Positions 5,218-43,104 of a DNA stretch of 43,104 nt are shown here, in pieces; the stretch's first letter is position 1; every line of letters begins with the position of its first letter. The position numbers were made by a program, and so were the translations under genes. The stretch lies in the sequence record PZ445418.1; one strand, given 5' to 3'. Below the pieces are notes generated by a model. The model was not told where the DNA came from. It saw only the letters and a list, made by a program, of their open reading frames with translations, and did no database searches. The DNA comes from a phage.

Positions 5218-5246
5218 TTTTGCGTCCTCGTTGTTGGTGTGCAACC

Positions 5247-5275
5247 AATATATGCAACCAATACGCGGATTGCAA
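5247..5275 (-). promoter_or_regulatory. sigma70-like promoter TTGCAA-17-TATATT
   Basis: hexamers with 17-bp spacer on minus strand; two TGCAACCAAT copies (5240-5249, 5253-5262) overlap it. Confidence 0.5.
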
Positions 5276-10125: not shown

Positions 10126-10148
10126 GGGGCCAGTACGGCCCCTTTTTT
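10126..10148 (+). terminator. intrinsic terminator
   Basis: GGGGCC-agtac-GGCCCC followed by TTTTTT. Confidence 0.75.
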
Positions 10149-10164
10149 ATTGGAGAATACTACA

Positions 10165-10527
10165 ATGGCAAAAGCACCACTCTTCACACTTGACCCTAAG
10201 CCGACCTTTAAGCTGCCGATTGAGATCCCGCGCCCCGGTGAAAACGAACCGGGAAAAATGACGTTTACCGTGCGCCACCGCCCGATCGACGAATTTTCGC
10301 AGACCATGCAGGATACTGAGCGCAAGTTGTCGGAGTATGACGACAATGACCCTGACGGCTTTAACGTTATGGTCGAGGCCATAATGCACGTCGCTGAAGG
10401 CTGGAATCTGCCGGACGAATTTAACGCGGAGAACGTCCGCCGCCTGGTGGTCAACTACCCGCGCGCGTTCGGCGTGTTCCATACGTCGTACTACCTCGAA
10501 CTGATGGGATTGCGTGAAAAAAACTAA
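10165..10527 (+). CDS. tail assembly chaperone (G-like)
   Basis: 120 aa acidic protein directly upstream of tape measure; ends at slip site; RBS GGAGAA. Confidence 0.6.
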   Translation: MAKAPLFTLDPKPTFKLPIEIPRPGENEPGKMTFTVRHRPIDEFSQTMQDTERKLSEYDDNDPDGFNVMVEAIMHVAEGWNLPDEFNAENVRRLVVNYPRAFGVFHTSYYLELMGLREKN

Positions 10528-10841
10528 TTGAGGCGGCGCGACGCTTTTACGGCCCGCCGCCACCCTCCGAAGATTTAGCCGCGAGTTTATGGGGGGCGGC
10601 CCCTGAAGACGTTTGCCCTCCGGTCGCACTATGGCCCGACAACGCGAAGGTAGTCGCAGTCTTCACCGATTGCTCCACGCAATGGCGCACCGGATTCGGT
10701 GGCGCATACGGCATCGACTACGGCGTACTGGAATGGCTGTTTAGGATGCACGGCATCGAAAACGCACAACGTGCGTTTAAAGATATCAAACTAATGGAAC
10801 GCGTTGCGCTGGATGAAATGGCGCGGCAGAACCCAGCATAA
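10165..10841 (+). CDS. tail assembly chaperone GT-like fusion via programmed -1 frameshift
   Basis: heptamer A_AAA_AAC (10518-10524) just before G stop; -1 frame stays open about 107 codons to TAA at 10839-10841 with no start codon of its own. Confidence 0.5.
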
Positions 10842-10845
10842 CGAA

Positions 10846-11161
10846 GCGGGACAGGGGTGCTGTCCCGTTCTGTCCCGCCCACAATGAATCTGCATACCTA
10901 TTCAGTTTTACTGCATAAACTAAAAGCGGGACGGCGGGACGTCCCGATCTGTCCCGCCCCAGAAATGTGAATACCTATTCAGTTTTACTGCATAAAACAA
11001 ACGGGACAAAAAGCGGGACAGAATGGGGCGGGACAGATCGGGACGTCCCGCCGTCCCCCTCAGTGCTGCCGCGGGTTTCGGCCGATCGGGACAGGCGGGA
11101 CAACCACCAGTCTTTCAGACTAGACGGGGGTCAATGGCCCCCCTCGTCTGAGACTGAATAA
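10846..11161. repeat. iteron element A: GCGGGACA(G/A) array, two 26-bp box repeats, terminal GC-rich hairpin
   Basis: box ATACCTATTCAGTTTTACTGCATAAA at 10894-10919 and 10971-10996; about 9 forward and 5 reverse GGGAC units incl. palindromes GGGACGTCCC; hairpin 11107-11158. Confidence 0.8.
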
Positions 11162-11224
11162 GGTTTGTTTTAAATTCGCTGATACAATAAACGACGGCAA
11201 CTGCATAAAAAGGGGGACTGCATA

Positions 11225-13867
11225 ATGGCAGATCAGGCAGCGGGCATCACGCTCAAGGCGGACGTCGCGCAAATTAAAACGGCTAATACTGTGCTGGATA
11301 CATTTGCGCAGAAATCCGAGAACACAGAACAGAAAGTAAAGAAATTAAACGACACACTCGGCAAGTCGAAGAAGGTTACTAGCGACGCCGCGGGCGGAAT
11401 GGGGAAGTTAGCGACTGAATCGCAGCGTGCCGCCGATGGCATGACTAAACAGGAGCGACTCGCCAACCGGCTAGGCATGTCGACCAAGAACCTGGGATTC
11501 GCATCGCGGAACGCCGCATTCCAGTTACAGGATATCGCGGTAACGCTTGAAATGGGTATGCCGGTGCATCGAGTCATGCTTCAGCAGCTACCACAGCTTA
11601 CTGGGGCGTTTGGCGGGTTGGGGAATACGCTGCGTTATGTCGTCGGCACCCTCGGCCCGTTAGGGATCGGCATCGCTGCATTAACGGCAACGATGGGCGT
11701 TGGCGTGTCGATTATGTCACGAGCAGAGAACCAGGTCGCAGCGCTTAATAAGACGCTGGCGCTGTCGGGTAATATCTCCGGCCTCACCGCTAACCAGATC
11801 CTGGTGCTATCAGAGAACGCCGAGCGGATGGGCGGATCATTCCGCAAGACGCGTGACACAATTCAGTCACTGGCGGCGGCGGGTGTGAAAGCGGGTGCGG
11901 ACTTCGGCGGGTTAGCAAAGGTGGTTAATGACTTTGCAAAGACGTCGGGCCAACCTATTGAGGACGTTGTCGCGTCGGTGGCGAAGCTGTCAACCGATCC
12001 GGTAGGCGGCTTGCGCGCACTGGCGGATAAGTATCACGTCGTAAACGAAGCGCAGATCCAGCAGGTGCAGTCGCTTGTGGATATGGGTCGCGAGACAGAC
12101 GCAGTTGCGTTGGCTAACAAAACCGCCGCCGCGTCGTTTACCACTATGACCAACGATATCAAGGCGAACATGGGCACGCTTGAGCGGTCTATGAACGTCG
12201 TCACATCGGCAGCTAAATCGATGTGGGACGCTATCCTGGATGTGGGCCGCGCGCAGTCCTCGAATGAGTCAGAGATGAAAGCGCGTGAGTCCTTGCAGCG
12301 CATGACCACGGCTTACTATGCCGAGATGAGAGCGGTAAACGCTGCCGGCGGGGTGATGACCGAAGCGCAGAAAGCGCGTATTAACATGCTTTACAGCGAA
12401 CTGGTCGCCCAGGAAAAGGTGGTTGCGTCGCTTACCATGCGCAACCGTGCCGAGCGAGACAACGCCAGCGCCGCTGACGAAGCAGCAAAGGCGAACGAGG
12501 AGGCAAACCGCACCGCCCGCGACCGCGCCGCGTTTGAGAAGGAGTACGCAACCAACTCGAAGCGGCGAGCCAACGAGATCGCCCGCCTCAATTTGCTGAA
12601 TAAGCGCGGTGTTATTAACGAGAAAGAACTAGCCGAGGCGGTGAAGCAGGTCAACGAGCGCTACAAAGACCCCGCACCGAAGAAAGCGGCGGCAGTTCGA
12701 GTCGATGCCGGGCTGAAAATGCTGGAAGTCGCGCGAAGCGAATTAGCCCAGCTTCGTGAGTCTGGAAAGCAGATCGAAGCCAACGCATCGACGCAGACCC
12801 GCACGCAACGCGCGCAAGCGGCCCTAAACAAGCTGATCGCAGATAATGAGCAGTTAATCGCAGCAAGCAAGGAGCGCACACTAACGGCAGCAGAAAAGCA
12901 GCAAATGGCGGAGTTCGAGGCGGTTAAATCTGTACGCGAGCAGATCGTCGAAGAAGCCAAATTGCTGGACGCGAAAGAGAAGCAGATCAAGGCACATGCC
13001 CAGGTCGAGGCATTCATCAAGAACCAGAACGCCGAGCTAAAAGCCACCGCGGCGGGCTATGCGCTTTCCACTCGCGAAGCGGCTAACCTGCGCGAAGAAT
13101 TGCAGCTAATTGACCGCCTTCAGCGTGTAGGTGCTAACGATACTGAGATAGACAAGGCGGTGTCTAAGCTGCGTGAAGTTCAGGAAGCGCAGACCGGAGC
13201 TAACGCCTCATTATGGGATGGATTTAGTCGCGGGCTTCGCGATAGTGTGGATGAAATGGGTAACGGCTATACGCAGATGTCGTCACTCACAAAATTCACG
13301 TTCGGCGCTATGCAGGACACGATGAACGAGTTTTTCGAGACTGGCAAGCTGAACGCAAAGGATATGGTTAAATCCATCCTGAGCGAACTAATCAAGCTGG
13401 CTACCTCGCAGGCTTTCAAGTCGATCGTTAGCGCTTTTGGTGGCGACGGCGGCAAAAACGGATTGTTCGGCGCTATCTTCTCTGGCCTCACCAAGAATGC
13501 GGACGGCGGAGCGTACGCAGGAGGCAATCTCGCGGCCTATTCAGGGAAAGTGGTAAGTCAGCCTACCTTTTTCAGTTATGGCGTCCAGGCGTTCGCTAAT
13601 GGCGCAGGATTGATGGGCGAGGCTGGTCCTGAGGCCATCATGCCACTGAAGCGCGGGCCGGACGGGAAACTGGGCGTTGCCGCGTCTGGCGCAGGCGGGG
13701 GTATGGTCGTGACGACTAACGTTTACACGGGGGCCGGTAAAACGGATACCAGTGTCAGCGGGCCGGACCCCCGTACCGCGCAGGCGTTCGGCAAGCAGAT
13801 CACCGAGGCGGTGAAGGCCGAGATCGTGAAAGCGACGAAACCGGGTGGTGTACTTTACAAACGATGA
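11225..13867 (+). CDS. tail tape measure protein
   Basis: 880 aa, helical N-terminal two-thirds, Gly-rich C-terminus, between GT chaperone and gpM-like gene. Confidence 0.85.
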   Translation: MADQAAGITLKADVAQIKTANTVLDTFAQKSENTEQKVKKLNDTLGKSKKVTSDAAGGMGKLATESQRAADGMTKQERLANRLGMSTKNLGFASRNAAFQLQDIAVTLEMGMPVHRVMLQQLPQLTGAFGGLGNTLRYVVGTLGPLGIGIAALTATMGVGVSIMSRAENQVAALNKTLALSGNISGLTANQILVLSENAERMGGSFRKTRDTIQSLAAAGVKAGADFGGLAKVVNDFAKTSGQPIEDVVASVAKLSTDPVGGLRALADKYHVVNEAQIQQVQSLVDMGRETDAVALANKTAAASFTTMTNDIKANMGTLERSMNVVTSAAKSMWDAILDVGRAQSSNESEMKARESLQRMTTAYYAEMRAVNAAGGVMTEAQKARINMLYSELVAQEKVVASLTMRNRAERDNASAADEAAKANEEANRTARDRAAFEKEYATNSKRRANEIARLNLLNKRGVINEKELAEAVKQVNERYKDPAPKKAAAVRVDAGLKMLEVARSELAQLRESGKQIEANASTQTRTQRAQAALNKLIADNEQLIAASKERTLTAAEKQQMAEFEAVKSVREQIVEEAKLLDAKEKQIKAHAQVEAFIKNQNAELKATAAGYALSTREAANLREELQLIDRLQRVGANDTEIDKAVSKLREVQEAQTGANASLWDGFSRGLRDSVDEMGNGYTQMSSLTKFTFGAMQDTMNEFFETGKLNAKDMVKSILSELIKLATSQAFKSIVSAFGGDGGKNGLFGAIFSGLTKNADGGAYAGGNLAAYSGKVVSQPTFFSYGVQAFANGAGLMGEAGPEAIMPLKRGPDGKLGVAASGAGGGMVVTTNVYTGAGKTDTSVSGPDPRTAQAFGKQITEAVKAEIVKATKPGGVLYKR

Positions 13868-21384: not shown

Positions 21385-23388
21385 ATGGCAGCGGGTACAC
21401 TATCCGTAACGAATAACAGCAAGGCGGTAGTCGGTGTCGGCACGACGTTCACCGCGTTTAAAGCTGGCGACTTCTTAACGTTGGTGGTGGGGCAAGTCCC
21501 TTACACTGTTGCTATCGCGTCCGTCGAAAGCAACACCGCGCTTACGCTGGTGCTGCCGTTCGACGGCCCCACGGCAACCGGCCTTGCCTGGGATGGCGTT
21601 GCGCGTGATACCATGTCCCTGGCGACGATGGGCGTAACAGTCCAGGCGCAGAAAGCATTGCGCTTGATGATTGCAGATGAAAACAACTGGCGTGCCATCT
21701 TCGGCGACGCTGAAGAAATCACAGTGACGTTACCAAACGGGCAGGTTATGCAGGGCATGTCATGGGGCTATCTGTCAAGTCTTCTAAAAGACGTTGACCC
21801 GGTGGAGCTTCAGAATATTGCCAACCAGGCTGTAACCGCGAAAAACGATGCTGTGTCTGCCAAGAATGATGCGCAGACTGCGAAGACTGCCGCAGAAACA
21901 GCGCGCACGCAAGCCCAGTCGGCTAAGACCGCCGCAGAGTCAGCACGTGACGACGCGCAGACGGCTAAGACCGCCGCAGAAACAGCACGCACCCAGGCAC
22001 AGACCGCGAAGACCGCCGCAGAAACCGCCAAGGGTGCGGCGGAAGACGCCCGCGATGAGGCGAAGCAATATGCAGAGCAAGCCGGAGCACCATATAAGCA
22101 GGTATTACAACCGCTACCAGACGTGTGGATTCCGTTTAACGATTCGCTGGATATGCTCGCAGGCTTCGCGCCCGGATACAAGACGGTTACGGTAGCCGAC
22201 GACGAGGTTACTATGCCGAGCGACAAGGTGGTGTCGCTCAAGCGCGCATCAACGGCAACATATATTAACAAGTCCGGCGAGTTTAAAATCGCAGAGATTG
22301 ACGAGCCGAGATTCGAAAAATACGGCCTGCTCATTGAAGGCCAACGCACTAACCACATCATCAACGGGGGCGCTCCGGCTGGCTGGGGCCACAGCACATC
22401 GGTTGGCGTGGTTACGGGTACAGATGCTTTCGGTTTCTTGTATGGAAAGTTTGGTATCGGCCAGGGCGACGTGGGCAGTACGACTGTGCTTAACCTGGCT
22501 TCCGTAACATCAGCAAACAGTCTGGATACTTCCGGCGTCGATAAGTATGTAACGGCGTCATGCCGCTTTCGGTCCGACAAGGATGTACGTCTTCGTGTGC
22601 GTTTTGCAGAAGGCGCGGATCAAGGCAGCATGGCTTTCTCTGGCGACGCGTACATTAAATTAAGCGATTTGTCCGTGTCTAAGACGGGTGTCGCGGCAGA
22701 CCGCATTACCGTAGAAGTCGAGAAAGACGAAGCCACCGGATGGAATCGTGCGGTGGTAATGCTGCAAGCTACCACGGCGCTGGTGAACGCGCAGATCCAG
22801 ATCTCGCCAGTGAGCAGTTATGCTGCCGGTGATTATATCGAACTGGCAACTCCGCAGGTTGAGTTAGGGATCGGGGCGTCTTCATATATCATCTCCGGCA
22901 CATCTCCAACCACACGCGCTAGCGATATGGTGACGGTACCGGCTAACCGCAACCTGTATAACCTGCCGTTTACGGTGCTTGTAGAAGTGCACAAGAACTG
23001 GTCTAAGGCGCCGAACGCAGCGCCGCGTGTATTCGACACCGGCGGTCATCAATCGGGTGCGGCTATTATCCTGGGATTCGGGTCTGGCGATATTGACGGG
23101 TATCCGTACTGCGACATCGGCGGTGCTCACAGACGTTTGAATGAAAACGCAGGGCTTAAGCATATGGTTATGGGTATGCGTGTGAAAGAAAACCAGGACA
23201 CTTGCGCGGTGAGTAACGGCATTCTTTCGACCGAATCGAAAACCACATGGACCTACCTGAAAGGGTCTGCGACGCTGCGAATCGGGGGTCAAACAACGAC
23301 TGGAGACAGACACCTGTTCGGGCACGTCCGTAACTTCCGTATCTGGCATAATGCGCTGACCGACCTACAAATGGGGGAATTAGTGTGA
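21385..23388 (+). CDS. tail fibre protein (Ala-rich repeat shaft, C-terminal lectin-like domain)
   Basis: RBS GAGGA; tandem TAKTAAETARTQAQ-type repeats; C-terminal F-R-I-W-H-N-A-L-T-D segment resembles LamG/ConA-like fold. Confidence 0.65.
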   Translation: MAAGTLSVTNNSKAVVGVGTTFTAFKAGDFLTLVVGQVPYTVAIASVESNTALTLVLPFDGPTATGLAWDGVARDTMSLATMGVTVQAQKALRLMIADENNWRAIFGDAEEITVTLPNGQVMQGMSWGYLSSLLKDVDPVELQNIANQAVTAKNDAVSAKNDAQTAKTAAETARTQAQSAKTAAESARDDAQTAKTAAETARTQAQTAKTAAETAKGAAEDARDEAKQYAEQAGAPYKQVLQPLPDVWIPFNDSLDMLAGFAPGYKTVTVADDEVTMPSDKVVSLKRASTATYINKSGEFKIAEIDEPRFEKYGLLIEGQRTNHIINGGAPAGWGHSTSVGVVTGTDAFGFLYGKFGIGQGDVGSTTVLNLASVTSANSLDTSGVDKYVTASCRFRSDKDVRLRVRFAEGADQGSMAFSGDAYIKLSDLSVSKTGVAADRITVEVEKDEATGWNRAVVMLQATTALVNAQIQISPVSSYAAGDYIELATPQVELGIGASSYIISGTSPTTRASDMVTVPANRNLYNLPFTVLVEVHKNWSKAPNAAPRVFDTGGHQSGAAIILGFGSGDIDGYPYCDIGGAHRRLNENAGLKHMVMGMRVKENQDTCAVSNGILSTESKTTWTYLKGSATLRIGGQTTTGDRHLFGHVRNFRIWHNALTDLQMGELV

Positions 23389-25756: not shown

Positions 25757-25785
25757 AATATAATGCAACCAATAGGGTTATGCAA
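25757..25785 (-). promoter_or_regulatory. sigma70-like promoter TTGCAT-17-TATATT
   Basis: two TGCAACCAAT copies (25764-25773, 25781-25790); same hexamers as 38620-38648. Confidence 0.5.
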
Positions 25786-25790
25786 CCAAT

Positions 25791-31695: not shown

Positions 31696-32472
31696 TTAAC
31701 GGCGGCGACGTTTGCGTGGTGCTTCGTCTTCGTCGTCGTCCTCATCATCTTCGTCATCGCGTGGCTTACGACGTTTACGAGGTTTCTCGTCTTCGTCATC
31801 GTCATCGCGGCGCTTGGACTTTTTGGACTTGCGCGACTTGTCATCTTCGTCATCGTCATCACGACGTTTTGACTTTTTGGACTTGCGCGGTGCTTCGTCT
31901 TCGTCGTTGTCCAGGTCTTCATCGGAGCAAGAAGACCCGCCACCGCCGAAGGCTTCGCCGTCGTCACGGAAGCGTAAACCCAGCAGTCCAGCACCGAGTC
32001 CCTTGCCGTTGGTATTGTTCCACGCCCAAATATCCAGGGACACATTGCAATAACAACCGGAGTAGATCTCCTGGCCTTCAATTTCGTCGCCTTCTACGGT
32101 CAGACCCTGTTCGGTCTGCTTCTCGCCGAGTGACGTTTGAATGTTTGGCTGCTTGAACGATTTGGCATTGATGTACAACATGCCTTCGAATTCTTCGGTT
32201 ACTTCGTCGCGCTCGTCGCCGTCGCGAACTGCGCATTCCTTAGAATCCTGGGCGTAGTGGCGGTCCATCCACTTATCGGCGTTCTTCTCGGATTTCAGCT
32301 TGTCGGTGAGCACTGCGCGCGCTGCCGCTTCCACTTTGTCCACCTGCGGATCTTCTTTATCAAGAAGAATCACTGCACGGTATGCCGGTTTTTGTCCATC
32401 CTGTTTAGGGGTATCGCGCTCCCAAATTTTAAGGAAACATACGCGCACATTTTTCAGGTTGACTTTAGCCAT
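31696..32472 (-). CDS. ssDNA-binding-like protein (DUF2815-like) with charged tandem-repeat tail
   Basis: ATG at 32472 (MAKVNLKNVRV) with AGGA RBS; FGGGG near C-terminus; tail of repeated DDDDED/KSKKSKRR units. Confidence 0.5.
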   Translation of the reverse strand: MAKVNLKNVRVCFLKIWERDTPKQDGQKPAYRAVILLDKEDPQVDKVEAAARAVLTDKLKSEKNADKWMDRHYAQDSKECAVRDGDERDEVTEEFEGMLYINAKSFKQPNIQTSLGEKQTEQGLTVEGDEIEGQEIYSGCYCNVSLDIWAWNNTNGKGLGAGLLGLRFRDDGEAFGGGGSSCSDEDLDNDEDEAPRKSKKSKRRDDDDEDDKSRKSKKSKRRDDDDEDEKPRKRRKPRDDEDDEDDDEDEAPRKRRRR

Positions 32473-35536: not shown

Positions 35537-35866
35537 ATGAACGTAAACGACGCAATCGAAATGTTAACCAAGACTGTTTGCAGTGAGACAAGCCGGTCCT
35601 GGGCGTATACCGATGCCGTGGGGGCGGTGTTATTCGAGGTCGAACGTCTGCGCAGTGTAGAAAAAGAATTACGCGCCAGGCTGGAATTGCTCAACGGTAC
35701 GGCGGCGAGCAAGCTGCAAAAGCACAATGAGGAAATGGAAGAATACAAAAAGCAGGTTATCCGTTTGCGCGCCGAGGGAAAGTCATGGGCGATGATCGCG
35801 GAGTTGACAGGAATTAATCAGAGCACCGTGCGATCCTGGGTACGCAATAACAAAACTTCGAAGTAA
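35537..35866 (+). CDS. helix-turn-helix DNA-binding protein
   Basis: 109 aa, C-terminal GKSWAMIAELTGINQSTVRSWVRN HTH-like segment; GGAGA RBS. Confidence 0.55.
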   Translation: MNVNDAIEMLTKTVCSETSRSWAYTDAVGAVLFEVERLRSVEKELRARLELLNGTAASKLQKHNEEMEEYKKQVIRLRAEGKSWAMIAELTGINQSTVRSWVRNNKTSK

Positions 35867-35876
35867 GGCAACGGCA

Positions 35877-38141
35877 ATGAGCTTAATTAAATTCGCTGTA
35901 ACAAGACCCGCTAAAAAAGGCGAAAAAGCCAGGGCGGAAAACTTCCAGATGACGACCGATGAGTTTTTCGAATTTATCAAAGATGCGAAAGAAATCTCCT
36001 CGGTGCATATCAACAAGACCGAGGATAAAGCCGAGTATGCGCGCCGCAAGCGTAAGGCCGACGGCATCGTGGCGTATACCAGTGATGGATTGCGTCGCAA
36101 GACCAGTGCGGTGGACCGCTCGATCCTGTTCTTCGATATTGACCGTACCGACACCCGCACCCTACGCCGCTGCCGTAAGGCGTTCATTGACGCGGGTATG
36201 GAACACGTATTTCACACCACAACCGGCGACCGTCACCCACTGAAAGGCGGTATGCGTTGTGCCCGTTTCCTGGTGCTCACCGATAAGCCTGTACCGGCTG
36301 AAGACCTGGGCCGCGTCCAGTATGCACTACTACACCAACTGGGCCTGTCAGATGTGGACTTCGACGATTGCACGAAAGACACTAACCGCCTAATGTACCT
36401 GCCACATCAGCAGTCTGTCGTTAAGTGTCACTACGGCAAACGTGCCCGCGTCCGTCGTCTGCTTCGCCTGGCTGATAAGCTGGGAGTGGAAAAAGAGGAA
36501 GTACGCCGCGAACTAACCCAGGGCGATGACGGCGTGGCAGACGGTATTCTGGATTGGTGCTTCCAGGCGGGATTCGAACCGCTGTCGTCCGGTCGTGGCT
36601 ATGAAGTGCCGTGCCCGAACGAACACCTGCACAGCGGCGAAGGGTCCACCGCTATTATGGTTAAGGATGGCGAGATCCGTTTCAAGTGTATGCACACCGG
36701 AAACGAGTGCTGTTCCGAACTGAACAGACACCAGCACCTGGCGCTACGTCTTATAGGGATCCCGGACCACCTGAACGTCGAACCGCACAACATGTCACGT
36801 AAGCAAATCGCCGCCATCCTCCCTGGACTGGACGACGAGGAAGTCGAATCGTGCTATGAACATATTGTTGATGCAGTTGGCGACGGCGAAGAATACGGCG
36901 TGTGCACCGATGCGGATCTGGATAACGAGCCGGTCGCACTCTTCAGTAAGCACGACCCGATCATAGAAGGCCTGGTAAACTTCAAATCGACCTGGTACAT
37001 GGCTGGCGAGTCGAACATCGGTAAATCGTTCTACGTGCTGGGGCAAATGGGCGCGGTTGCCGCGGGGATTCCGTTCGGTGGCGCGAAGGTAGTCCAGTCT
37101 CATTGCTTCTATTTCGACGCGGAAGGTGGTGAAGCCTCCAACCAGCGTAAAGAAGCATTGCAGATTAAATACGAGCACGACCTGGACAAGCTGCACATTA
37201 TCGATCTGCAATCACGCGGCTGGGATATCACCAGCAAATCCGGCTTGCGTGAAGTTATCAGCTTCATCAACCGCACCGCTAACGGCGAGCCGGTTGGCCT
37301 GGTGGCGTTCGACTCACTCAACCAGACTGTTGCGCTGCGGTCCGCCGATGCAAAACCGTTCGACGAGAATAACGCCAGCGATATGGGTGAAGTGGTCAAA
37401 GCGCTGAAGGCCATTGCGGAAAATACAGGCGGCAGTGCGGGCGTCATCCACCACCCAGCGAAGGGTGCAAACGGCAGCAGATCTCCCCGTGGGTCCGGCG
37501 CGCTTCATGGTGCTGTCGATTCTGCGTTCTTCCTGGAACAGCCGGACGACAACCAGCCAGGCCAACTCAACCTGTACCATGAAAAGGCACGTAACGGCAT
37601 CAAGCAAGCGCCGCGCGGCTTCGTCCTGCTTAAGTGCAAGGTTAAGGTGGATCTCCGCAAGTCCGAGGCGTTCGAAGCCCACCAGTCCACCAGCACCGGG
37701 CCGGACTTCGGTGATGTGGTTGCCGGATGGGACGTCAAGCCAATTGCCTCCACGCCACGCGACGAGACTCTCTACCTCGTACCGGTCGCCCTGGCGCCGT
37801 TCGCTATCGAACAGGCAAAGGCAGCGGGCAAAGCAGCAGTTAAGGAAGAGAACACCGCCGGACCGCGCAACGAAAAAGAAAAGGTACTTTACGCGGCGCT
37901 GGAAAAACTGATGGAAGACAACCCGGACCATACCGGATTCAGTAAATCGGCAATTGTCCGCCAGGCGGGATTGGCAAAAGGTGGCACATCGACGAAGGCA
38001 ATCGACGATATGGTCGAGCGCGGAGTGCTGGGTTTTTACACCGATCCGCACACTGGGGCCATCTATGGGTCGTCGAATATCGTCATTAAAACGAATATAC
38101 CCATCACGCTTTCGGCGACCGACGAAGATTTAAAAGATTAA
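35877..38141 (+). CDS. primase / replicative ATPase fusion protein
   Basis: 754 aa; Cys/His cluster CPNEHLH...CMHTGNEC; Walker A GESNIGKS and Walker B-like LVAFDSLN in C-terminal half. Confidence 0.7.
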   Translation: MSLIKFAVTRPAKKGEKARAENFQMTTDEFFEFIKDAKEISSVHINKTEDKAEYARRKRKADGIVAYTSDGLRRKTSAVDRSILFFDIDRTDTRTLRRCRKAFIDAGMEHVFHTTTGDRHPLKGGMRCARFLVLTDKPVPAEDLGRVQYALLHQLGLSDVDFDDCTKDTNRLMYLPHQQSVVKCHYGKRARVRRLLRLADKLGVEKEEVRRELTQGDDGVADGILDWCFQAGFEPLSSGRGYEVPCPNEHLHSGEGSTAIMVKDGEIRFKCMHTGNECCSELNRHQHLALRLIGIPDHLNVEPHNMSRKQIAAILPGLDDEEVESCYEHIVDAVGDGEEYGVCTDADLDNEPVALFSKHDPIIEGLVNFKSTWYMAGESNIGKSFYVLGQMGAVAAGIPFGGAKVVQSHCFYFDAEGGEASNQRKEALQIKYEHDLDKLHIIDLQSRGWDITSKSGLREVISFINRTANGEPVGLVAFDSLNQTVALRSADAKPFDENNASDMGEVVKALKAIAENTGGSAGVIHHPAKGANGSRSPRGSGALHGAVDSAFFLEQPDDNQPGQLNLYHEKARNGIKQAPRGFVLLKCKVKVDLRKSEAFEAHQSTSTGPDFGDVVAGWDVKPIASTPRDETLYLVPVALAPFAIEQAKAAGKAAVKEENTAGPRNEKEKVLYAALEKLMEDNPDHTGFSKSAIVRQAGLAKGGTSTKAIDDMVERGVLGFYTDPHTGAIYGSSNIVIKTNIPITLSATDEDLKD

Positions 38142-38260
38142 ATTTTGCGCGCATTGGTTGCCGATATGGGAATTCCCATATCGCTAAAAGGTTAAATTTT
38201 GCGCGCATTGGTTGCCATTTTGAGTGTTTTTATTTGGTCGTATTGGTTGCCGTGTAGTGT
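38138..38260. repeat. direct repeats flanking a perfect 20-bp palindrome
   Basis: TTAAATTTTGCGCGCATTGGTTGCC at 38138-38162 and 38192-38216; palindrome GATATGGGAATTCCCATATC at 38163-38182; third ATTGGTTGCC at 38242-38251. Confidence 0.75.
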
Positions 38261-38268
38261 AAATATAG

Positions 38269-38463
38269 TGAATAGTTATGCAGTTTTATTGCATAAAGTA
38301 AGCGGGACAGAAAGCGGGACAAACAAGGGGCGGGACAAAGCGGGACAGCACCCCCGTCCCGCCCCGGATGGCGCGGCTTCCAGAGGAGCGGGACAGCGGG
38401 ACAGCACCCCAGTCTTTCAGACTAGACGGGGGTCATCGGCCCCCCTCGTCTGAGACTGAATAA
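38269..38463. repeat. iteron element B (second copy of element A)
   Basis: box TGAATAGTTATGCAGTTTTATTGCATAAA, six GCGGGACA(G/A) units, terminal hairpin differing from copy A at only 2 positions. Confidence 0.8.
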
Positions 38464-38619
38464 AATCCGGGGGATTGCAAAATACACGGCAGCATGTTGC
38501 GAAGTGCGGTCGCGGATGAACTAGGCAACCAATGCGAGATGCATTATGCGGAGTGAAAAACACAGTTTGCAGTTGCAGCAGATAGCGATCAACTTTTTCA
38601 TGCGCATGTTTGATATTGG

Positions 38620-38648
38620 TTGCATCCGCCCTAGCACCCTGCTATATT
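38620..38648 (+). promoter_or_regulatory. sigma70-like promoter TTGCAT-17-TATATT
   Basis: flanked by ATTGGTTGCA at 38615-38624 and 38645-38654; leader matches the one upstream of 4453..5217. Confidence 0.55.
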
Positions 38649-38676
38649 GGTTGCACACCAACAAGAGGACTGAACA

Positions 38677-42553: not shown

Positions 42554-43104
42554 ATGGCAGAAATCAAAGTTAAGGGCCGACGCGCCAAACTGGACGGACG
42601 AGTGGCAGTAACCCCGCGCCGTAAACCTGGCGAGCAAACAGAACACACCAATCTCGGGCCGGAGATCGAATACGGCAAGCGCCGTAGAGGCGGCAAATGT
42701 GGACGTCCTACCGACTACCGTACCGTGTATTGTGACCAGCTTCGCCGCTATTTCGCCGATGCCGTAGCCTGGCAAATCAACTACTCCGACAAAGGTGCTG
42801 CGCAGGTAATCCCTCGCAACAAGATGCCGACTCTAGGTCGCTTTGCCGCAGATATTGGTGTAGGCGTCGCCTGCCTGTACCGCTGGGCGCGCGCACATGA
42901 GGAGTTCGCCGAGGCGATGGCGGACGCTATGGAGTTGCAGAAAACGTTCCTGATGGAAGCTGGCGGCGTGACCATCGCGGCGGGCTTCGCTACCTTCCTG
43001 CTTAAAGCCAACCACGGCGTCCGGGACGATGTACCGCTGGATGACGACGAAGATGATAACGGCGACGTCGTTGTGGAGCCTACTGGCAAAGGTCAGGGTG
43101 AGTA
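42554..43104 (+). CDS. terS: terminase small subunit (stop codon completed by position 1)
   Basis: HTH-like PTLGRFAADIGVGVACLYRWA, acidic C-terminus, directly precedes TerL; RBS AAAGGG. Confidence 0.65.
   Translation, partial: MAEIKVKGRRAKLDGRVAVTPRRKPGEQTEHTNLGPEIEYGKRRRGGKCGRPTDYRTVYCDQLRRYFADAVAWQINYSDKGAAQVIPRNKMPTLGRFAADIGVGVACLYRWARAHEEFAEAMADAMELQKTFLMEAGGVTIAAGFATFLLKANHGVRDDVPLDDDEDDNGDVVVEPTGKGQGE

Follow-up and report, generated by a model that had tools for sequence, protein, structure and literature searches.

In P4, iterons occur in both orientations at two separate sites lying several kilobases (kb) apart. In the SaPI elements, island-specific iterons of 6–8 nucleotides (nt) flank an AT-rich segment in a symmetric arrangement, iteron and helicase specificity domain vary in concert, and we know of no GC-rich terminal hairpin or conserved box described for these origins. 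The P4 alpha protein is reportedly (Ziegelin et al. 1993; Yeo et al. 2002) a primase-helicase with a C-terminal winged helix recognizing octamer iterons at ori/crr, while SaPI Pri/Rep is said, by Ubeda et al., to be a self-loading helicase with the origin immediately 3' of the helicase gene. Here, we consider a repeat-rich non-coding element, region A, situated in the tail-gene cluster of PZ445418.1, which is the complete genome (~43 kb; GC 55%) of a Dhillonvirus, i.e., an HK578/SO-1-like E. coli siphophage; the window analyzed is this whole stretch of 43,104 nt. Dhillonviruses are common and widely used E. coli phages (e.g., SECphi4 and several recent collection phages). Region A resembles a further element in the same genome, region B, directly past the helicase-primase gene, and it is possible, with a likelihood that we place somewhat short of even, that region A duplicates a DNA element of iteron type and origin-like character and is a putative binding site for the helicase-primase.

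Phage SPP1 has two origins, oriL and oriR, each comprising direct repeats together with an AT-rich unwinding element and each bound by the same phage initiator (PMC6316719). One of these lies at the replication genes and the other in a non-coding segment of the late morphogenesis cluster, where it is bracketed by transcription signals and has been proposed to stall forks and trigger a theta-to-sigma switch (PMC6316719). The papers on pRN1 describe a minimal replicon requiring 166 base pairs (bp) downstream of the primase-helicase gene (PMC4234260) and the succession of a small repressor gene (orf56), an AEP prim-pol/helicase with a winged helix (orf904) and the essential 166-bp non-coding stretch (PMC4234260, PMC2777425).

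The Dhillonvirus locus is like that of SPP1 in having two similarly organized sites, one at the replication genes and one inside the late/morphogenesis genes. However, SPP1 uses gp38 as a separate origin-binding protein, along with a separate loader, a DnaB-type helicase and the host primase, whereas in Dhillonvirus a single protein unites primase, helicase and winged helix; oriL is inside gene 38, whereas the Dhillonvirus module comes after the helicase-primase gene; the repeats are without sequence similarity; and the function of the Dhillonvirus site is a proposed one. P4 shares with it the single primase-helicase with a C-terminal winged helix and the short iterons at two sites in both orientations, but alpha combines a Toprim-type primase with an SF3 helicase, as against the AEP PrimPol and RecA-type AAA_25 helicase of Dhillonvirus, and is missing from the top fold matches for the Dhillonvirus winged-helix model. 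With SaPI the locus has in common an origin-type site 3' of the helicase gene, short lineage-specific iterons, an AT-rich segment and what may be a co-varying specificity domain, but in SaPI both the helicase family and the host are other ones and there is no second copy. The gene order of small helix-turn-helix (HTH) protein, helicase-primase and module recalls pRN1, but this archaeal plasmid has an SF3 helicase and no such iteron array is described for it, making it an analogy only. The origin class appears to be of a previously known kind; what appears new is the cross-genus homology, the series of repeat specificities and the link to a winged helix.

Region A (10842..11224, + strand) is the entire non-coding gap of 383 nt that separates the tail chaperone G/GT from the tape-measure ATG at 11225. 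The flanking genes named in the preliminary description, a GT chaperone and a tape measure, were borne out: upstream lies chaperone G (10150-10527, + strand; Pfam Phage_TAC_4), whose G/GT product is read from the sequence as a -1 frameshift extension from the slippery run GAAAAAAA, with its TAA at 10839-10841, and downstream lies the 880-residue tape measure protein (11225-13867, + strand). Its view of the region as non-coding likewise holds, as the open reading frames over it (10967-11161 and others) can be set down as spurious because several single-base indels among 14 related Dhillonvirus copies break any frame. The features of region A, and those near the helicase-primase gene on which the comparison depends, are as follows.

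10846..10880, no strand assigned: left iteron set, with a GCGGGACAG-GGGTG-CTGTCCCG hairpin that begins 5 nt past the G/GT stop codon and an extra CTGTCCCGCC; 1 forward and 2 reverse GGGAC; terminator-like in the scan on the minus strand only
10894..10919, + strand: AT-rich box 1, ATACCTATTCAGTTTTACTGCATAAA; 25-nt windows reach 72-76% A+T
10925..10961, no strand assigned: middle iteron set, the left arm of a 37-nt inverted repeat, including the palindrome GGGACGTCCC
10971..10996, + strand: AT-rich box 2, identical to box 1 and opening the ~195-nt module common to regions A and B
11002..11060, + strand: iterons, 4 forward (starts 11002, 11014, 11029, 11039) and then the inverted pair GGGACGTCCC..GTCCCC; the right arm of the 37-nt inverted repeat (11024-11060) falls within this stretch
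11061..11085, + strand: spacer CAGTGCTGCCGCGGGTTTCGGCCGA, read by eye as a small hairpin presenting GGGTTT
11086..11103, + strand: two more forward iterons, TCGGGACAGGCGGGACAA, from the GGGACR site search
11108..11156, + strand: terminal bulged hairpin of ~20 bp, 5' arm G-rich, 3' arm C-rich
11180..11188, + strand: TGATACAAT, a putative extended -10 promoter of the tape-measure operon, inferred by reading and invariant in 14 phages
11194..11201, + strand: ACGGCAAC, a copy of the octamer ACGGCARC, 38 nt past the terminal hairpin
35877..38141, + strand: helicase-primase of 754 residues with an AEP PrimPol domain, an AAA_25 RepA/DnaB-like helicase and a C-terminal winged helix; the proposed iteron reader
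37878-38141 (~residues 668-740), + strand: the C-terminal winged helix, from a structure model
38268..38458, + strand: region B module, with box at 38268-38297, iteron array at 38302-38404 (6 forward, 1 reverse) and hairpin at 38410-38458

The repeat GGGAC(A/G), of which about 14 copies in both orientations had been counted at first, is in fact present 15 times (9 forward and 6 reverse) within the 255 bp of 10848-11102. Its total in the whole genome is at chance (43 versus 44 expected upon shuffling), yet the clustering is extreme, with 22 of the 43 sites inside two short stretches: at the background rate, 15 sites in 382 bp have a Poisson probability of ~1e-23 and the 7 sites in 100 bp of region B one of ~1e-8. 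Allowing at most one mismatch, GCGGGACAG is found 27 times against 12.4 expected, a count reached in none of 100 shuffles, and GCGGGACA is one of the 8-mers that recur most often in the genome. Both regions thus have an array in which one short sequence is repeated much more often than chance would give, and in both an AT-rich stretch adjoins the array, as in iteron-type origins (25-nt windows of 72-76% A+T at 10895-10905 and 10965-10980, and of 76-80% at 38255-38270).

The reported palindromes are perfect, GGGACGTCCC being found twice (10936-10945 and 11040-11049) and GGGACAG-GGGTG-CTGTCCC at 10848-10866, and the 26-nt box ATACCTATTCAGTTTTACTGCATAAA does exist in two exact copies (10894-10919 and 10971-10996). 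This box is nevertheless not the palindrome TGCAGT-TTT-ACTGCA that it was taken to contain, as the actual sequence is TTCAGT-TTT-ACTGCA and pairing is limited to CAGT/ACTG. It also includes TTATGCAGA, which matches the DnaA-box sequence TTATNCACA at 8/9 positions and which we take to be a mere resemblance. The GC-rich hairpin at the end of the region is real (11108-11156, ~20 bp with bulges), with an RNA minimum free energy of -26.9 kcal/mol. To these can be added an inverted repeat that had been overlooked, with 37-nt arms of 97% complementarity (10925-10961 and 11024-11060) separated by 62 nt, which encloses AT-rich box 2 and two iterons.

Region B sits directly 3' of the helicase-primase gene and shows the organization of the ~195-nt module in its simplest order: first the box GTGAATAnnTATnCAGTTTTAnTGCATAAA, next GCGGGACA in four forward copies, then an inverted pair, the spacer, two forward repeats and the 49-nt hairpin. 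Region A amounts to this module (10967-11156) preceded by an extra box and two partial inverted iteron sets, and the terminal hairpins of the two regions are identical save for two loop bases. A set of repeats around region B may be mentioned as a separate observation: CGCATTGGTTGCC has three direct copies (38150-38162, 38204-38216 and 38238-38251) and one perfect inverted copy (38524-38536) flanking the module at 270-360 nt, and these could form an operator set for a regulator.

A 701-nt query around region A matched 157 phage records at 80-95% identity, and both regions are present in all 157 of these Dhillonvirus records, while no copy of either was found in any complete E. coli genome searched. 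That these repeats exist was already on record, because both loci were flagged earlier in the GenBank entry of Sodalis phage SO-1 (NC_013600), a sister Dhillonvirus, as repeat_region A and B; the entry speaks of repeats of direct, inverted and palindromic type, of mutual similarity and of a 'possible' role, though it names neither a binding protein nor homology outside the genus. Our literature searches found no paper on the SO-1 repeat regions or on a Dhillonvirus replication origin, and the papers on related phages that were consulted are silent on the repeats. Conservation, expressed as mean pairwise identity among 14 (region A) and 16 (region B) distinct Dhillonvirus copies, is distributed unevenly over the element.

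Hairpin stems: 96-98%
Three apical loop bases of the hairpin: 44-55%
GGGAC cores: 91-92% (region A 91%)
Rest of the arrays: 81-84% (region A 81%)
Boxes: 79-88%

All 15 sequence variants of the hairpin in Dhillonvirus have minimum free energies between -24 and -30 kcal/mol. The inverted pair comes in two forms, GGGAC|GTCCC and GGGACAG-CACCC-CTGTCCC, which are swapped mosaically among copies and phages. In the region B box (38279-38295), the 7-nt loop between TATGCA and TGCATA is, depending on the phage, either GTTTTAT or its reverse complement ATAAAAC, a variation seen at the same site in L002, L005, L012, L015, L017, L024, etc.; to judge from its form, this switch is a small DNA-level inversion of the type typical of quasi-palindromes.

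A search with the full-length helicase-primase gave at least 327 homologues. When relatives of the helicase-primase were retrieved with their flanking DNA and the region 3' of the stop codon was inspected, every lineage examined had a short lineage-specific repeat array directly past that codon. The distance from the stop is ~0-130 nt for region B and for the homologous modules of 8 lineages; region A does not share this linkage. The repeats are:

Divergent Dhillonvirus-like contigs L032 and L066: GCGGGACA
Salmonella phage FSL SP-031 (Cornellvirus): GGGGAGA
Metagenomic contig L073: GGGATAA
Enterobacter phage phiEap-2 and Pantoea phage AH01: CGGACAA
L067 and L070: TTGCGA-type
L072: TTCCGCACA

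SP-031, L073, phiEap-2 and AH01 have a layout in common, namely the box GTGAATAGTTATGCAG, forward repeats, an inverted pair, a GGGTTT spacer, forward repeats, a hairpin with a G-arm and a C-arm, and ACGGCARC. The box, to which AT-rich box 2 of region A is homologous (the Guernseyvirinae form being GTGAATAGTTATGCAG), is near-identical across genera (97.6% over 42 nt between SP-031 and phiEap-2), and by eye the spacer hairpin is kept in phiEap-2 and AH01 with altered stem bases (GCAA/TTGC and CCAA/TTGG). Hairpins of equivalent position in eiAU, phiEap-2, AH01, SP-031 and L073 range from -25.5 to -32.9 kcal/mol. In Edwardsiella phage eiAU-183 (Eiauvirus), both positions are occupied, the one past the primase gene and the one ahead of the tape-measure gene, with a distinct motif, CGCCCCG, and the hairpin core GACGGGGG...CCCCTCGTC in common. 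On the basis of these comparisons, we regard the module as homologous across Dhillonvirus, Eiauvirus and Guernseyvirinae and as always having a copy directly 3' of the helicase-primase gene. FSL SP-031 has a single cluster in its genome, beside the primase gene, and none before the tape-measure gene; therefore, the primase-adjacent copy is ancestral, and region A arose later by duplication and is seen in Dhillonvirus and Eiauvirus.

The change of the repeat from lineage to lineage inside a constant architecture argues for a co-evolving, phage-encoded reader, and the same pattern favors the earlier suggestion that the array is bound by a protein. The putative reader is the helicase-primase. Its N-terminal AEP PrimPol domain is modeled with a mean predicted local distance difference test (pLDDT) score of 85.9 and is matched by Foldseek to the PrimPol of cyanophage S-2L (6zp9, E 3e-5). 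A search of PDB by sequence yielded nothing beyond a marginal RepA match. The AlphaFold model of the C-terminal domain (~90 residues, pLDDT 77.5) has the succession H1-S-H2-H3-wing, and its best structural matches, with probabilities of 0.9-1.0, are winged-helix proteins: the MarR family, histone H1, ORC2 and DnaD. This winged helix diverges faster than the remainder of the protein. The ratio of its identity to that of the N-terminal part is 0.69-1.0 for pairs with the same repeat and 0.51-0.71 for closely related pairs with different repeats; for example, L073 and AH01, which differ in their repeats, are 85% identical in the N-part and 44% in the winged helix. The starts of the recognition helix are shared only in pairs with the same repeat, as in STKAI/NTTAI in Dhillonvirus and RRRSL/RRRDL in phiEap-2 and AH01. 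These patterns are suggestive of a recognition helix that tracks the repeat sequence. The small XRE HTH protein encoded upstream does not do so, since the recognition helices of L073 and phiEap-2 are near-identical (SQARISHICLGR / SQGRVSHICLGR) and their repeats differ. As to that position itself, PZ445418.1 encodes there (35537-35866, upstream of the helicase-primase) a 109-residue protein matching HTH_23 and Sigma70_r4_2 and called 'transposase' in public records, in place of which Guernseyvirinae and Eiauvirus have the unrelated XRE-type HTH.

The preliminary description left a choice between an origin, a packaging site, transcription control and a structured RNA. Among these, an origin-type site is best supported because the ancestral copy abuts the gene of a helicase-primase whose recognition helix appears to track the repeat; packaging, by comparison, found no support. 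We infer binding, melting, initiation and a role in the mode of replication, which might proceed as follows. The C-terminal winged helices of a multimeric helicase-primase would bind the repeats; the adjoining AT-rich box, in region A bracketed by inverted iteron sets, would then melt; the helicase would load itself; and the hairpin, extruded in single-stranded DNA or in a transcript, may aid loading or priming. Region A, in the tail-gene cluster, could be a second origin or a bound site modulating replication, with SPP1 oriR and P4 crr as precedents.

Several observations weigh against this origin-type reading. E-values of the fold matches to the winged helix are poor (>=0.015), and P4 alpha is outside the top 50. 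The co-variation comes from a sample of about a dozen proteins with a hand-chosen domain boundary, and the ranges of the two classes overlap (0.69 versus 0.71). The similar repeats CGGGACA of Dhillonvirus and CGGACAA of phiEap-2 go with very different recognition helices, and the Eiauvirus motif (CGCCCCG) and layout are far more divergent than the rest. The module is always co-oriented with transcription and has promoters downstream (the extended -10 in region A), which is just as compatible with a role in transcription or as RNA; the hairpin, with its stems conserved and its loops free to vary, likewise suits RNA no less than single-stranded DNA. The cumulative GC skew has no inflection at A or B and turns at ~24.8 and 35.4 kb, both boundaries of gene orientation, although skew is weakly informative because in a 43-kb phage it follows gene orientation and transcription.

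The alternative that survives best, though we hold it to be unlikely on balance, is that a phage regulator, bound at the GGGAC array, governs the downstream promoter, with the hairpins ending or processing the upstream transcript and the modules marking boundaries between temporal units. The modules indeed lie between co-oriented transcription units and point in the direction of transcription, the invariant extended -10 TGATACAAT stands between hairpin A and the tape-measure gene, sigma70-like TTGGTTGCAT-N17-TATATT promoters (TTGCAT-N17-TATATT) follow module B, and the left hairpin is as close to the G/GT stop codon as noted above. The irregular terminal hairpin of ~20 bp resembles the RNase III processing sites of T7 and lambda. 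However, the scan for promoters and terminators detected no + strand intrinsic terminator in 10842-11224 or 38142-38676, the hairpins lacking one because the U tract is absent (the terminal hairpin is followed by AATAA), and a scan for consensus two-hexamer promoters gave nothing on the + strand of either region, those named here having been read by eye. The dedicated small HTH regulator beside the primase gene fails to track the repeat, the constant neighbor in every lineage is the helicase-primase gene rather than any particular downstream gene, and FSL SP-031 is without a copy before its tape-measure gene. The two roles need not be exclusive: SPP1 oriR is bracketed by transcription signals (PMC6316719) and, therefore, origin and transcription functions can coexist.

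Independently of this question, the element TTGGTTGC, found in 19 copies against 1.9 expected (38150-38654, 5241-5261(-), 25765-25789(-), 28724(-), 21360(-) and others), supplies the -35 of the sigma70-like TTGGTTGCAT-N17-TATATT promoters in several places. One such promoter-plus-leader (TATATTGGTTGCACACCAACAAnGAGGAC..ATG) precedes two different genes (38677 on the + strand and ~5220 on the - strand), and equivalents in related genera are GCAACCAA, GCAGCCAAC, GCGGCCAAC and CAGCCAAC.

We attach a still lower likelihood, that of an improbable alternative, to the box being a weak sigma70 promoter (TGAATA-N17-CATAAA/AATAGT) for a structured RNA of ~170 nt that starts at the first iteron. Such an RNA, in which the GGGA repeats would be single-stranded and which would hold internal hairpins along with the terminal one, might serve as a protein sponge, as a leader in cis or as a primer/R-loop RNA. 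Between genera that have nothing but enterobacterial hosts in common, the box hardly differs, as would be expected of a site read by a host factor, e.g., RNA polymerase; the repeats are mostly forward on the sense strand; and the hairpin stems are kept while the loops vary, with stems that differ between genera at similar stability. Folding z-scores of -2.2 and -2.6 point the same way but are modest. Against it, the promoter match is poor, having no T at -7 in Dhillonvirus and being missed by the scan; a terminator is absent; in SP-031 and region A, the box has some of the repeats on its upstream side; taken as DNA, region A is symmetric in the layout of its inverted repeats; and the inversion of the box loop (GTTTTAT versus ATAAAAC) is a DNA-level signature. 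There is also no match to an Rfam family across the whole genome at the gathering threshold; relaxed thresholds gave only generic miRNA-hairpin models, at 42 against a cut-off of 99 bits, which is due to the inverted repeat, with nothing for region B, and a tRNA search returned nothing meaningful. Both this and the transcriptional alternative explain the fixed linkage to the helicase-primase less well than an origin-type site does, but one element may fill more than one of these roles, as origins activated by transcription or primed by RNA do. Two readings of the G-rich repeats were considered apart from these: a CsrA sponge was set aside, as the Eiauvirus repeat has no GGA and many repeats are inverted, and a G-quadruplex was weighed, the G-rich strand being a different one in Eiauvirus.

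Very unlikely, finally, is a site for packaging or for another kind of DNA handling (pac/cos, partition), or a selfish repeat that duplicated in the genome and does nothing for the phage, since the two genome copies, the mosaic exchange of variant cores (GGGACGTCCC form versus GGGACAG-CACCC-CTGTCCC) and the public records that begin or finish near the regions are countered by terminase genes 10 kb from region A at the window ends (TerL starts at 1), by the single, primase-adjacent copy of FSL SP-031, by record ends that assembly breaks in repeats explain, and by retention in 157/157 genomes with stems at 96-98% and homology across genera, a conservation that bespeaks selection and not drift. 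Descent from the host or from a host mobile element was ruled out, as the E. coli genomes hold no copy. With regard to the record ends, those of eiAU-183 (L025), at 43002-43017 and 1-16, overlap by 16 nt (CCAACAATGCAACCAA) within the repeat region and resemble an untrimmed circular assembly junction, and the idea that public record ends in region A are physical genome ends was rejected.

The octamer ACGGCARC, which in the lineages read has one copy past each module's terminal hairpin, is in itself a conspicuous feature of these genomes. It has 51 copies in PZ445418.1 (e.g., 879, 3207, 9007, 12884 and 38486), with 39/51 on the + strand and 29/33 within 1-24784; ACGGCAGC alone is found 27 times versus 2.4 expected. 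Codon-order shuffles gave 7.9 +/- 2.1 copies, with a maximum of 14, and matches fall in at least 2 reading frames; the excess, therefore, exists at the DNA level. The octamer is also abundant in SO-1 (53), FSL SP-031 (33) and eiAU-183 (28), being over-represented in three genera, and may be a priming site or a polarity signal. One might imagine, as a distinctly long shot, that the module is an entry point for sequence-programmed replication, in which a promoter for host RNA polymerase in the box would have the G-rich iterons transcribed to give an R-loop or structured primer RNA and the self-loading primase-helicase would dock through its winged helix on the iterons and hairpin and move rightward, using ACGGCARC as priming or signaling sites.

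Elsewhere in the genome, an intrinsic terminator of canonical form (10126-10142; GGGGCCAGTACGGCCCC then TTTTTTATTG) between the gene for the major tail protein and chaperone G is probably an attenuator reducing the expression of the downstream tail genes. Two in-frame tandem repeats were also observed: one of 54-nt period at 31712-31924, coding for an acidic stretch in a gene block on the minus strand, and one of 42/84-nt period at 21838-22028, in a 676-residue tail fiber-like open reading frame.

If an origin-type site bound by the helicase-primase is the correct reading, region B would become a concrete candidate for the origin of these phages, and region A would account for the non-coding gap in their tail operon. 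The same element would then extend to phages of Salmonella, Enterobacter, Pantoea and Edwardsiella, and its repeats (GGGACA, GGGAGA, GGGATA and CGGACAA) would constitute, with the corresponding winged helices, a natural specificity series for DNA recognition by a self-loading primase-helicase. It would also carry a warning for annotation, in that the 'hypothetical proteins' placed over regions A and B in many records would be spurious. Should the far less probable entry-point scheme with ACGGCARC hold as well, it would give this group of lytic siphophages a replication code that is oriented and of a new kind.

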